Below are positions 2,108 to 14,791 of a DNA stretch of 40,480 nucleotides, piece after piece (position 1 is the first letter of the stretch; the number at the start of each line of letters is the position of its first letter). The DNA lies in IMG/VR virus record IMGVR_UViG_2718218098_000005, positions 1 to 40,480 of that record; one strand, given 5' to 3'. The translations under genes and the position numbers were made by a program. Under the pieces are notes generated by a model, which ran no database searches, was not told the DNA's origin, and saw only the letters and a list, made by a program, of their open reading frames with translations. Source of the DNA: a virus. Lineage: Duplodnaviria > Heunggongvirae > Uroviricota > Caudoviricetes.

Positions 2108-2133
2108 AAAAAAGCCCGCCTGAACCGGCGGGC
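2108..2133 (-). terminator. Intrinsic terminator-like hairpin downstream of lom
   Basis: Minus strand reads AGCCCGCCGGTTCAGGCGGGCTTTTTTGTGG: 7-bp GC stem followed by T6. Confidence 0.6.
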
Positions 2134-2160
2134 TGTCATAACACTGTGTTACCTGGCTAA

Positions 2161-2760
2161 TCAGAATTTATAACCGACACCCACGATGAAACTGTTGGTA
2201 CGCCAGTCACCGCTGCCGGAGCCTTCATAAGCGACGTCAACGGCCACGGATTCGGTCGGGTTAAACTGCACGCCAGCTCCCCACGCCAGAGACGTGTTGC
2301 TGTGGCGACCGTCATCACTTCCGGTCAGCACATCGTGCGTTTTCCCCTTGTTGTCAGTTACGCGGATATAATCTCCGGAGAAAGTCGAAACACGGCTGTA
2401 AGCCATACCCGCCATCGCATACGCGCTGAACCATTCATTCACGCGCACAGACGGCCCCGCCATCACGCTGAACCAGCGGTTACGCACGGAATCTTCATGC
2501 CAGCGGGTATCGCTGTGATGCGTTTTTTGCTCATCTTCAGCGTTGGCATAACTGAATGACGTAATCAGCCCCAGCGTGTCCGTAAACTCATAACGGTATT
2601 TCACGTTAATCCCGTTCAGATTATCGCTGCCGGGAGCGTTCGTACGGGCATGAAGATACCCTGCGCTCAGTGTGGCCTGCTGCTCAGACGCCCATGCAGG
2701 CGCACCGGATACGGCCAGACAGATGGCTGCGGACAAAATGGCTGCACAAACTTTACGCAT
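2161..2760 (-). CDS. lom: Lom outer membrane protein (Ail/Lom family), 199 aa
   Basis: Near-identical to lambda Lom N-terminus [22 protein letters not shown] (signal peptide) and beta-barrel body; position after J. Confidence 0.92.
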
Positions 2761-2784
2761 AATTACCTCTCGCTTTTCTGCAAT

Positions 2785-2808
2785 AAAAAAGGCGCCATTT
2801 CTGGCGCC
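2785..2808 (-). terminator. Hairpin plus U-run between J and lom
   Basis: Minus strand GGCGCCAGAAATGGCGCC followed by TTTTTTATTG, 20 nt upstream of lom ATG. Confidence 0.5.
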
Positions 2809-2827
2809 CGTATATGGGGTATAAAAT

Positions 2828-5800
2828 TCAGCTGATACTGATGCCTGCGGTGGCTTTCTTCATCACCACAACCAGCAAATCACTGATACTTGCTGTGGGA
2901 TACCAGTCATTTACCAGCCATGCTGACACCGAAAACTCCAGCGTCATGTGACCGTGACCGGCAGGCATATCAATAACGCCACTGTAAATCAGCGTATTAT
3001 CCAGCGCGGTACGGTTATAAATTTCAGCACCGTTTTTCCGCACTATCAGACGGCATGAGGAGTAAATATCAGTATGCTCTCTCTCATGTTTAGCGCCGCT
3101 GAATGCCACCGCCGGAATAACAATCTGCCGGTCAAACGGCTGATTGTCATAAACCCTGACGGTAATGGTCCCTGATGGCCACCGTTCCGGTGCACGGGAG
3201 TCCCGGGGGAAAGCTTTGCCCACGGTTTTAACGAGATCACCTTCAATCTGGTTCGCGGACAGTTTTCCCAGAACCCGACAGTTCTCGTTAATCGTGACGT
3301 TGTTGAGCGTCCCGGCGTTCGCATTCACGTTACCGCTGATATCCGCATTTTTCGCCGTCAGCCGCCCATCCGGTGTCAGGGAAAATGCCGGAGGATGACC
3401 ACCACTGGTAATGGTGGGGGCCGTCAGGCGCTTCAGGAACACGTCGTTCATGAATATCTGGTTGCCCTGCGCCACAAACATCGGCGTTTCATTCCCGTTT
3501 GCCGGGTCAATAAACGCGATACGGTTAGCGGCAACCAGAAACTGACTCACCGTGTCCTCCATGCTGAGGCCAATACCCGCGACATAATGTCTGCCGTCTC
3601 TGGTCTGCTCAATTTTGACGCCCCACATGACATTCCATTTATCACTGGCGTCCTTCCACGCTTTCGAAAACTCCTCCAGTCTGCTGGCGTTATCCTCTGT
3701 CAGCTCGACTTTTTCCAGCAGCTCCTTGCCGAGATGGGATTCGGTTATCAGGCCTTTGAAAAAATCCAGGTAACCTTCGGCATCATCGCTCGCCCGACCG
3801 ACAGCCTCCACGAATGTCGATTTGCCGACGGTGTTCACACTGCGGATATAAAAGTAATAATCACGACCCGGTTTGATATTGATACTGGCGGCTATCCAGT
3901 ACAGCGCCGTACCAAGATAGCGGGCTGTGGTTTCAACCTGCCTGATATCCGCAATCCGTTTTTCCGAGAACCAGAACTCAAACTGTACCGTCGGATCATA
4001 AACCGCAAGATGCGGCGTGGCGGTTATCTGAAAATAGCCCGGCGTCAGCTCAATCCTCGACGGTGCTGCCGGTGCGGCAATCCGGAACGATACCGACGCC
4101 GGATCGCCCCGCTGCCCCCACGCATTTACCGCCCGGACCGTCAGCGTGTAACGCCCCAGCGCCAGCTGCCTGAAGCGGTATGTGGTTTCCGTCGTCCTGG
4201 CTGTACTGACCAGCCGCTCACTGCCGTCGTCCGCTGTTACGGTCAGGCGAAGCATAAAGCTCACCCCCTTCACCACCTTCGGTGTGTCCCAGCGCGCCAG
4301 CACCTGATATTCCCCGCTGTCTGCAGTGACTTCTGCGGTCAGGTGCTGCACCGCTGGCGGCGTGACACCATTCACCGTGCCGCTCTGGTCGCCGTCAAAG
4401 TGCGCCCCGTTATCCACGATGGCCTCTTTTTCCGGTACATGCTGCACGGCGGTGATGGCATACGTGCCGTCGTCGTTCTCACGGATACTCACGCAGCGGA
4501 ACAGGCGCTGGCGCAGCGTCGGCAGCTTCAGCCCCCACACGCTGTATTCAGCAACGCCGTCAGGAACCCGGCTCACTTTCACCTTCACGCCGTCGGTGAC
4601 GGACTGAACCTCCACGCTGACCGGATTGCCATTTCCGTCAACCAGGCTTATCAGCGTGGTGCCGGAGGATGGCAGCGTGATTTCACGGTCGAGCGTCAGC
4701 GTCCGGGTCTGGCTGTTCACCGCCAGCACGCGACCACCGGTGCTGATACCGGCATAGTCATCATCGCAGATTTCAATGACATCGCCCGGTACATGGCGAA
4801 GCCCTTCGGCACCCACGCTGAAGTCCACGGTCTGCGTTTCCAGCAGCTCCGTTTTAATCAGCCACAGCCCGGCGCGGTGCGCCTGCCCCCGGCTGGTACA
4901 GCCAAAGGCATCCATCTTCGTGACGTTACGACCGTAACGGGCAATGGCCTGCGTGTCCTCCACAAGCTCTGTCGCCGTCTGCCAGCCGTTGTCCGGGTCA
5001 ATCCAGTTCACCTCAACGGCATTATGGCGGTCCTTCAGGGCGCTGAAGCTGTAGCGGAACGGCGCGCCATCCTCCGGCATCACCACATTACTGCGGTTAT
5101 AGGTCCACACCTTATCCGACGGCCGGTCCTGCACGAACGTCAGCGTCTGCCCGTTCCATACCGGCATACAGCGCATCGCCGAGCAGAAATCACTGAGCAC
5201 ATCCCACGCCTTACGCTGCGTGGTCAGCCACGCATTACAGGTGATGCGCGGCTCCGTGCCGCCAGAGCCGTCCGGCACTGACTGGTCGCAGTACTGGCCG
5301 ATGGCGTACAGCGCCCATTTGTCCACGTCCGCCGCGCCAAGACGTTTCCCCATACCGTAGCGCGGGTGGGTCAGCATATCCCACAGACACCAGGCCGGGT
5401 TGTCACTGTATGCCGGTTTGAGGGTGCCGTCCCAGATACCGCTGTATTGCCGTGTCTGCGGGTTATAGTTCGACGGCACCTGCAGAATACGCCCACGGAA
5501 ATGGTAAGTGCGGCTCACCTGCTGGCTGCCGAACTGCTCCGAATCCACCTGCACGCCGACCAGTGCCGTGTTCGGGTGGCATTGTTTCACATCGATGATT
5601 TCGGTGTATGACGACCAGAGCGTTTTGTTCTGCAGCTGGTCTGTGGTGCTGTCCGGCGTCAGCCTGCGCATCCGGATATTAAACGGGCGCGGCGGCAGGT
5701 TACCCACCACCACCGAGGCCAGATACTGTGAGGTGGTTTTTCCCTTAATGGTGATGTCTTTTTCCGTCACCCAGCCACCGTTACGTTGTATCTGAACCAG

Positions 5801-13657: not shown

Positions 13658-14100
13658 TTACTTAAGACCTCATCAATAGCCTGATTCATTCGCTGTATGG
13701 CAATCTGCGCAGCCAGTTCCTCTGTCGTATCGAAAGCCGGGCGAATGAACGGATGCGCGGGCATGTTTATCGTTCCCAGCTCCACAAAGCGCCAGTAAAA
13801 CGCATTTCGGGGATCACTGGCTTTCATGCTGTTATCACTGTTTCCGGTTCGCAGGTTCCGTCCTCGAATGTGGACACCCGAGATAATTTCCCCCCGACGC
13901 TTTGAACGCTGAGTGAGAACAACCACATTTTTCTTCAGTTTCCCGATTCGCTCCGGCGCACGTTCAACAACTGCATCCCGCATAACTTCAGCACCGGCAC
14001 GGGTGGCATCGCGCAGAACCTTATTGTTTTCTGCCCTGCTGAGCGTCTCCAGATCCCGTGCAATATCCGCCAGACCTGAAAAATCAAGACTGAAATCCAT
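13654..14100 (-). CDS. HK97 gp10 family head-tail joining protein
   Basis: 148 aa; recollection of HK97-gp10 family; TGATG coupling with head closure gene. Confidence 0.65.
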   Translation of the reverse strand: MDFSLDFSGLADIARDLETLSRAENNKVLRDATRAGAEVMRDAVVERAPERIGKLKKNVVVLTQRSKRRGEIISGVHIRGRNLRTGNSDNSMKASDPRNAFYWRFVELGTINMPAHPFIRPAFDTTEELAAQIAIQRMNQAIDEVLSK

Positions 14101-14438
14101 CACACATTCCCCTTCTGAGAACAGAGTATTTCAAGCCGGGTAGCGCGTGCATCCGGTATTGGTGGACCTTCTATACCCAGAATGGCCCCTTTAAATGCAC
14201 CGGTCAGCACTTTCAGACGAGAAGTCGCTGTCACATCGCGCCGGAATCTCATCCAGACTCTGACCGTAGCCTGAGCGGTTTCTGCTCCGCCTGAGATTAT
14301 CTCCCTCCCGCTGATACCCTTAACTTCTGCCCATACGGTAGCTCCCTCCGTCACCGTCTCCACCGGATGCCCTGACGGAGAGCGGGCGGTGGTGACATTC
14401 AGAATAATTACGCGATCACGTAATCTGCCCGCCTGCAT
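14100..14438 (-). CDS. Head closure / head-tail adaptor protein
   Basis: N-terminus MQAGRLRDRVII typical of head-tail joining family; RBS AGGAGG; position after gp6-like connector. Confidence 0.7.
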   Translation of the reverse strand: MQAGRLRDRVIILNVTTARSPSGHPVETVTEGATVWAEVKGISGREIISGGAETAQATVRVWMRFRRDVTATSRLKVLTGAFKGAILGIEGPPIPDARATRLEILCSQKGNV

Positions 14439-14446
14439 GCTTCCTC

Positions 14447-14764
14447 CTACAAAGGAATAAAACGATAAGGCTCCAGCAGAGAAGAAAAACCAAACGGGAT
14501 TGGTGCCTTGCTGACATCTGAGGAATTTTCCCGGTTTTCGTACCAGTGCCCGACCAGCAACATAAGCGCCAGCAAAACATCATCAGCTATAAGCACCCCT
14601 TCTGGATCCCCCTCCGGCACCGTCTCCTCATAAAGCTTACGGTTGATAAAATTTTCTGCCTTGCGGCAGGCAGCCCGGAAATACAGCATCAGTAACTCAT
14701 CATCAGTTGCATCATCTGTATCAATACGGCACTGCGCCCTGAGTTTTTCCACTATTGCTGCCAT
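14447..14764 (-). CDS. gp6-like head-tail connector protein
   Basis: Start at ATG 14764 (MAAIVEKL) with AGGAG 6 nt upstream; directly after major capsid gene. Confidence 0.65.
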   Translation of the reverse strand: MAAIVEKLRAQCRIDTDDATDDELLMLYFRAACRKAENFINRKLYEETVPEGDPEGVLIADDVLLALMLLVGHWYENRENSSDVSKAPIPFGFSSLLEPYRFIPL

Positions 14765-14771
14765 CAGAAAC

Positions 14772-14791
14772 TCCTGCCCGCAACACTGTGC
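14772..14791 (-). other. Stem-loop immediately 3' of major capsid ORF (no 3' U-run)
   Basis: Minus strand GCCCGCACAGTGTTGCGGGC between MCP stop and connector RBS. Confidence 0.4.

Follow-up and report, generated by a model that had tools for sequence, protein, structure and literature searches.

The late structural operon of a lambdoid prophage, lying within 40,480 nucleotides (nt) of DNA that we analysed as a whole (the window: positions 1 to 40,480 of IMG/VR virus record IMGVR_UViG_2718218098_000005), carries a hairpin in every one of its longer inter-cistronic gaps, in most cases followed by a run of U residues. We hold, with moderate confidence, that these elements are genuine Rho-independent terminators, joined by one or two stabilizing hairpins after the capsid gene, within one late operon that depends on the antiterminator Q. 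What carries this reading is the anatomy of the elements, their strand, their placement between genes, their conservation together with compensatory changes, the presence of Q in the prophage and the prior annotation of counterparts in phage HK97. The window is 100% identical to the chromosome of Escherichia coli strain M19 (NZ_CP010221.1), and its structural operon, whose gene map we drew from PHROGs and Pfam matches, is transcribed from the minus strand.

An earlier note on this DNA had listed five hairpin elements in the operon. Strand reading together with independent scans recovered all five on the minus (coding) strand, 1–5 nt from where the note had placed them, and added two that were absent from its list (all hairpin coordinates in this paragraph refer to the minus strand). 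Between the genes lom and stf, a hairpin of −17.6 kcal/mol (AGCCCGCCGGTTCAGGCGGGCT followed by T6; 2134-2107) has an 8-base-pair (bp) stem at 2134-2113 with seven GC pairs and a 6-nt loop, continues into U6 and ends 10 nt before the stf ATG at 2096. The hairpin between J and lom (GGGCGCCAGAAATGGCGCCT followed by T6; 2809-2784; −15.1 kcal/mol) likewise has an 8-bp stem (2809-2790), here with six GC pairs and a loop of 4 nt before its U6 tract, and is flanked by the J stop codon at 2828 and the lom ATG at 2760. Ahead of the tape measure gene (H), between it and the G/T chaperone genes, lies a hairpin of −8.0 kcal/mol (AACCGCTTCGGCGGTT followed by T8; 11851-11828), with the stem AACCGC-TTCG-GCGGTT at 11851-11836 and then U8. 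The element before the major tail protein gene (V), hereafter the pre-V hairpin (ACCCGCCGCTGGCGGGT followed by T7; 13292-13269; −12.0 kcal/mol), has the stem ACCCGCC-GCT-GGCGGGT at 13292-13276 and then U7, and stands between the stop codon of the tail terminator gene at 13313 and the major tail ATG at 13252. After the capsid gene the earlier note had described a stem-loop lacking a U-run. That element, hairpin B (TGCCCGCACAGTGTTGCGGGCA; 14796-14775), is indeed there, with an 8-bp GC-rich stem that adjoins the AGGAG Shine-Dalgarno sequence of the head-tail connector gene, but a hairpin that does have a U-run is there as well: hairpin A, weak and overlapping the capsid stop codon (GCUGCGUAAUGCAGU followed by U5-6; 14817-14798). 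Hairpin A is one of the two additions; the other lies between I and J (AAACCGCC-TGCG-GGCGGTTT with the tail UUUUGUCGUUU; 6253-6223, stem 6253-6234).

The distribution of these elements is far from random. A strict terminator pattern (at least 6 pairs, at least 4 of them GC, and at least 5 U in 8) matched positions 1-20400 ten times on the coding strand versus three times on the other, and 100 dinucleotide shuffles of the same stretch gave 2.06 ± 1.47 matches with a maximum of 6. All six inter-cistronic gaps of at least 40 nt (capsid-connector, tail terminator-major tail, T-tape measure, I-J, J-lom and lom-stf) hold a hairpin, and none is found at junctions that overlap or are shorter than 15 nt. 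The layout is the same at every gap, running from stop codon through a short spacer, hairpin, U-run and Shine-Dalgarno sequence to the start codon. The elements are confined to junctions at which translational coupling is broken, and each is packed against the ribosome-binding site of the next gene. We judged the elements by the usual anatomy of intrinsic terminators, taken as a GC-rich stem of about 5–12 bp, a loop of 3–8 nt and at least five U within 0–2 nt of the stem. The stems, all on the coding strand, have 6–8 bp with 4–7 GC pairs and loops of 3–6 nt and conform to this description. U-tracts of the required kind follow the stems at 2134, 2809, 11851 and 13292 (U6-U8) and at 14817 (U5-6), the tract at 6253 is interrupted (UUUUGUCGUUU), and hairpin B (14796-14775) has none and by that measure is no terminator. 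The folding energy of the pre-tape-measure hairpin is not significant on its own (z = −0.41), so that its support comes from comparison with related phages and not from energy. A perfect 10-bp palindrome with a 4-nt loop at 16387-16364 (minus strand), inside the prohead protease open reading frame (ORF), where it codes for KAGSLTGLS, is also present in phiP27; we considered it as a further element and set it aside, as it occurs at about chance level, lacks a proper U-run and is kept only in a close relative.

Conservation is most striking before the major tail gene. A hairpin with a U-run occupies this position in all nine phages that we folded, from Escherichia, Salmonella, Klebsiella, Cronobacter, Aeromonas and Serratia. 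When one genome per species was scanned, homologues of the major tail protein (46–80% identity) turned up at 62 further loci. Under the strict pattern, 52 of these loci showed a terminator within the 100-nt bin that precedes the gene, compared with 0–2 in most coding bins. A looser scan was positive at 64 of 70 loci, and five of the six misses carry a hairpin that is visible in the printed sequence, which brings the pre-V terminator to about 69 of 70 related loci across many Enterobacterales genera. The distance from stem end to ATG stays within 19–26 nt across these loci, and the stems themselves vary (CCCGCC, ACCGCC, GCCACC, AGCTGC, GACCGC and others). In Serratia phage OS31, an IS150 (1176-2675) sits in the loop of the pre-V terminator and splits the hairpin.

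We aligned 60 distinct sequences of this junction and analysed them for covariation. Of all cells, 90.1% were paired as against 71.7% in shuffles, none of 500 shuffles reaching as high, a contrast that is somewhat favoured by the way in which the sequences were found (by the hairpin scan) and anchored (at the stem end); this bias is small, because nearly all loci were included. Changes on both sides were seen in seven of seven stem pairs, with 66 double-change cells versus 18.1 ± 3.4 expected, and shifting the 3′ partners by 1–3 columns left at most 60.5% of cells paired. The columns of the U-tract are the most conserved of the region, the 20 nt between stop codon and hairpin are not conserved in sequence, and in more than 140 records, from more distant phages, detectable DNA similarity starts at the first base of the hairpin. 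The compensatory changes and the near-universal retention indicate that selection acts on the structure of the pre-V hairpin itself. The earlier note's description of the elements as terminator-like is well borne out by the canonical anatomy, the restriction to the transcribed strand and the conservation of structure across diverged phages.

The other junctions are conserved to varying degrees. Hairpins with U-runs but different stems occupy the same place before the tape measure gene in HK97, FSL SP-016, BP-4795, OS31 and AsXd-1, and the strict scan detected one at 33 of 55 genome loci, a count that rose to about 41 after inspection of the printed sequences by eye. A small extra ORF lies between T and this hairpin in HK97 (gp15), FSL SP-016, AsXd-1 and SaltyDalty, and Klebsiella phage ST147-VIM1phi7.2 has an IS21 (4089-5389) at this same junction; insertion sequences and small additional ORFs thus accumulate at the intergenic hairpin sites. 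Downstream of the capsid gene, strong hairpins occur in the window, 813R8, phiP27, HK97, three HK97-like phages, a Klebsiella phage and lambda, with U-runs that vary and are often poor. Hairpin B is identical in vB_EcoS-813R8, and phiP27 has the same GCCCGC/GCGGGC stem core with another loop; at the position of hairpin A, 813R8 has a canonical terminator and phiP27 a hairpin with U8. The lom-stf hairpin recurs without change in the cryptic prophage Rac of E. coli K-12 (MG1655 genome, 1429011-1429038), between lomR, which is interrupted by IS5, and stfR, and this Rac element would be a convenient laboratory copy for testing.

Counterparts are annotated inside the late operon of HK97 (GenBank AF069529; reportedly Juhala et al. 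2000). The record marks a ‘putative terminator' downstream of the major head gene (5192-5213) and upstream of gp12 (6692-6719), of the tape measure gene H (8398-8422) and of J (15107-15129), and these sites lie at the same junctions between homologous genes as their counterparts in the window. HK97 resembles the window in its homologous flanking genes and in the order of hairpin, U-run, Shine-Dalgarno sequence and ATG. It differs in the stem sequences at the pre-H, pre-J and post-capsid sites and in having U6 after its pre-J hairpin. HK97 also has terminators without a counterpart in the window (after the portal gene, after gp12 and before I) and carries the morons gp15 and gp22/23, which the window lacks, whereas the window has lom with two flanking terminators where HK97 passes from J to stf. 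In lambda, the I-J hairpin is identical to that of the window, in a stretch of 94% mean column identity, and the lom-stf hairpin is near-identical (93% mean column identity). Lambda also has a hairpin with a U-run at the J-lom junction and a UUCG-loop hairpin after E, both unrelated in sequence to those of the window. We conclude that the elements are real, non-random and selected, and that they are orthologous or analogous to features annotated in HK97 and found in lambda.

Elements of this kind are already known, being annotated in HK97, present in lambda and recognized as a phenomenon for P22-like phages and SPP1. Phage L has a predicted Rho-independent terminator at the end of its procapsid module, within an antiterminated late operon with a single promoter (Zaworski et al., bioRxiv 10.1101/2020.10.05.325894). 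Its authors remark that such terminators are not unique and that ‘their roles are not known', and propose partial termination or the stopping of transcription that is not antiterminated (10.1101/2020.10.05.325894). The P22-like phages differ from the window in belonging to a short-tailed group, in having no homologous genes at the junctions and in the smaller number of sites reported. Further afield, an insulating terminator combined with antitermination is documented in Tn916 (PMC11658703), processive antitermination is found in conjugative elements (PMC8191782), and stem-loops occur among the late genes of SPP1 (PMC6316719); the elements and antiterminators of these systems are unrelated to those of the window, and the resemblance would be functional only. 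Long antiterminated phage late operons carry internal terminators, and the window adds nothing new in kind; its covarying and near-universal terminator before an HK97-type major tail gene is the cleanest handle on function.

From these observations we infer termination, read-through by Q, a benefit from insulation and an effect on mRNA stability, in the following way. During lytic growth, polymerase loaded with Q at the late promoter would be unable to form terminator hairpins in its exit channel, and this modified polymerase would read through all of the sites and transcribe the operon as one long mRNA. Polymerase without Q, whether it derives from leak-through of the late promoter in the lysogen, from internal or moron promoters or from spurious starts, would be halted at the next terminator. 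The terminators would act as fail-safe insulators that keep the structural genes silent unless Q is present and that confine the transcription of accessory genes. Hairpins that persist in the mRNA may, in addition, block 3′-to-5′ exonucleases and so stabilize upstream segments such as the capsid message.

Several lines of evidence fit this reading. The prophage encodes Q (24511-25206, minus strand; PF06323, 301.7 bits), and the gene lies upstream of the late structural genes on the same strand. Two papers describe Q-loaded polymerase as deficient in pausing and termination and Q as narrowing and extending the RNA exit channel, thereby precluding terminator hairpins (PMC9388147, 10.1101/651190). 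The structural operon has at least seven terminators one after another, which would keep unmodified polymerase from ever arriving at J or stf, and since several more hairpins follow one another between Q and terS, only a terminator-resistant polymerase could traverse the operon. A late promoter with Q-binding element, pause site and tR′ terminator would be expected of such an operon; what lies just after Q is a promoter-like site (24527-24499) and a hairpin (24451-24420), and no Q-binding element was identified. In the Salmonella prophage BTP1, a P22-like phage, the cluster of capsid genes is reported to contain internal promoters on the coding strand (PMC7067206). Q is annotated too in 813R8 and OS31, the two related phages whose full annotation we examined, so that neither offers a discriminating case, a phage with the same tail module and hairpin but without Q. 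If the insulating reading is true, engineered phages or prophage-derived cassettes without Q would be blocked at these sites. For automated annotation and operon prediction, prophage late operons should not be split at them.

A number of observations weigh against terminators that serve chiefly to insulate a Q-driven operon. Our consensus scan found no sigma-70-like promoter upstream of any operon hairpin that would need insulating. Before V and before H lambda goes without a hairpin, its genes abutting or overlapping there, and among the 55 genome loci the prophages of Proteus, Providencia and Morganella lack the pre-tape-measure hairpin; the pre-V and pre-H terminators are therefore not essential to a Q-driven operon. 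Despite the identical hairpin in Rac, neither lomR nor stfR appears in the K-12 3′-end tables (PMC7815308). It is not obvious how insulation by itself would account for a retention of nearly 100% before the major tail gene. Finally, Q may not secure complete read-through, and some partial termination would then take place as well.

Partial termination was the main explanation that the earlier note had put forward, and in its full form it supposes that partial terminators attenuate lytic transcription, so that mRNA dosage falls stepwise and helps to set protein ratios. We consider it unlikely. T-phi of phage T7, which follows gene 10, is a precedent for an attenuating terminator. As to placement, the post-capsid, pre-tape-measure and pre-J sites suit the idea well: the first follows a gene whose product is needed in hundreds of copies, versus about 12 for the products downstream, and the other two precede the low-copy tape measure protein and J. 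Stem stability forms a gradient, with energies between −8 and −17.6 kcal/mol, and partial termination is among the roles listed by the authors of the phage L study (10.1101/2020.10.05.325894). The pre-V site, however, contradicts the idea, as the most conserved terminator of all follows the low-copy neck genes and immediately precedes the major tail gene, whereas control by dosage would call for the opposite order. Moreover, polymerase loaded with Q is termination-deficient according to the papers already mentioned (PMC9388147, 10.1101/651190), and at least seven strong terminators in series would leave almost no J or stf transcript unless read-through were near complete. In lambda, the relative expression of late genes has reportedly been attributed to translation initiation (Sampson et al. 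1988). As a general explanation of the elements, then, stoichiometry set by partial termination is not supported, since the best conserved site precedes the most abundant tail protein and the prophage encodes Q.

The hairpins might instead be RNA elements that do not terminate at all, serving as exonuclease barriers or processing boundaries, or providing in their U-tracts an S1/standby platform that boosts uncoupled translation initiation. The post-capsid hairpins lend themselves to such roles, being very stable and often poor in U (hairpin B, HK97, the UUCG-loop hairpin after lambda E and the Klebsiella phage), and for these strong hairpins the mRNA-stability role that the earlier note had also suggested is plausible. 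The tight stem-end-to-start spacing of 19–26 nt places the U-tract just 5′ of the Shine-Dalgarno sequence, the elements stand exactly where coupling is broken, and the pre-V one precedes a gene that requires high translation, a placement that a role in translation would account for. Yet a pure exonuclease barrier needs no U-tract, and the U-tract is what is most conserved; the same architecture precedes the low-copy tape measure gene, J and lom, where an enhancer is not obviously needed; and the spacing may reflect nothing other than minimal intergenic length. As an account of the whole set, we find this rather improbable.

A narrower proposal concerns the pre-V terminator, which, in place of a generic insulator, could be a dedicated control of the tail module throughout the lineage, either as a gate that lets the tail tube be made only when polymerase carries Q or as a terminator combined with a U-rich translation platform that uncouples major tail protein synthesis and raises it. 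Near-universal retention with compensatory changes is compatible with a specific role at this site and is unexplained by stoichiometric attenuation; we advance the proposal tentatively and give it a small chance of being right.

It is also conceivable that the hairpins have no present function in expression and are by-products of evolution, either terminators of lost morons or linker sequences at the boundaries of modules. Extra ORFs between T and the pre-H terminator (HK97, FSL SP-016, AsXd-1 and SaltyDalty) and insertion sequences at hairpin junctions favour this view, and so do genomic breakpoints. Of 712 E. coli records with a match to the capsid-connector region, about 680 end their similarity at 14803-14790, within the U-run of hairpin A and the first bases of hairpin B; the window joins a phiP27-like head module to an Evi-like neck and tail module at this hairpin pair. 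In the J-lom-stf region, some breakpoints fall just past the U-runs (2782 and 2105) and others within genes, and before V the hairpin's first base is where similarity to more than 140 phage records sets in. Hairpins often, though not always, coincide with mosaic joints. The U-V junction, by contrast, is continuous in 897 of 900 E. coli genomes, so that the view of hairpins as recombination joints at the level of E. coli holds at capsid-connector and partly at J-lom-stf and fails at the pre-V junction. Gene boundaries should show breakpoints in any case, as recombinants broken inside genes are lost. The covariation argues that the hairpins are more than scars: compensatory changes in seven of seven stem pairs and near-universal retention before V indicate selection on structure. 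We regard the by-product account as very unlikely.

That the hairpins terminate small regulatory RNAs (sRNAs), 3′-derived or from internal promoters, which bind Hfq in the lysogen, is barely credible. In its favour, hairpin and U-tail form the Hfq-binding module of sRNAs (PMC4104026), sRNAs such as HnrS are indeed encoded in the late regions of prophages (PMC13502914) and a weak isrK-like Rfam match lies at 13271-13333 (20.7 bits, expectation value E = 1.2). Against it, the operon contains no Rfam match at gathering score, the isrK match is at chance level, no promoter-like site lies upstream and the 20 nt from stop codon to pre-V hairpin are not conserved. A search of 1-21500 with Rfam 15 gave no match at the gathering score, and at E up to 5 only Trp_leader (2106-2188) and isrK (13271-13333), both with E over 1, which we attribute to chance-level resemblance between terminators. 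HnrS/EcOnc10-12 (PMC13502914) proved unrelated: with the coordinates from the supplement of Tree et al. put on the Sakai genome, it falls away from these junctions, on the opposite strand and in the interval from Rz to the terminase genes.

The gene lom, Ail/Lom outer membrane protein in type (2161-2760, minus strand; phrog_108, E = 6.3e-108), raises the question of morons in its own right. It resembles one in being an accessory gene that is absent from HK97 at this site and in having a strong terminator downstream (2134-2107), and the pre-H terminator of the window corresponds to the 3′ terminator of the HK97 gp15 moron, which is annotated as a ‘moron product'. The pre-V, pre-H and pre-J terminators of the window differ in having no accessory gene attached. 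Around 2760-2900 of the minus strand, a simple consensus search, which a weak promoter could escape, gave no sigma-70-like site; the stretch from the last U of the upstream U-run to the lom ATG is only about 23 nt long, and the GC content of lom (0.52–0.58) is similar to that of its flanks. With neither a promoter-like site nor a deviation in composition, we rejected lom as a classical moron.

The genes of the late operon are all on the minus strand, and the gene names given in the earlier note agree with the PHROGs matches. The operon begins with terS (19869-20351), terL (18112-19869), portal (16677-17918) and protease (16049-16729), followed by the major capsid protein gene of the HK97 fold family (14809-16035; phrog_10, E = 1.4e-101), the gp6-like head-tail connector (true ATG at 14764, to 14447), head completion (14100-14438), a gp10-like gene (13654-14103) and the tail terminator gene (13313-13657). 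The major tail protein gene V, of the HK97 gp12 type (12548-13252; phrog_158, E = 3e-107), encodes a protein with 71% amino-acid identity to HK97 gp12. G (12162-12548), T (11860-12150) and the tape measure gene H (8586-11819; phrog_339) come next, then M, L, K and I (I at 6272-6907), J (2828-6211), lom and stf (927-2102). The tail genes are about 97% identical to those of phages Evi and vB_EcoS-813R8. Mechanical ORF calls probably place the start wrongly at three genes, tape measure (11813-11819), connector (14764-14809) and stf (2096-2102); from Shine-Dalgarno spacing and alignment with relatives, we judged the probable starts to be GTG 11813, ATG 14764 and ATG 2096.

Between Q and terS, further terminator-like hairpins on the late strand lie at 24451-24420, 23627-23608, 23274-23259, 22132-22107 and 21119-21100. 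The first has a 12-bp stem and on the plus strand also scores as a hairpin with a T-rich tail. Three transfer RNA genes (23994-24300) lie just downstream of Q. Elsewhere in the window, Rfam matches above the gathering score are the sok antitoxin RNA (27542-27691, minus strand, 107 bits) and the DicF sRNA (36007-36058, plus strand, 76.7 bits).

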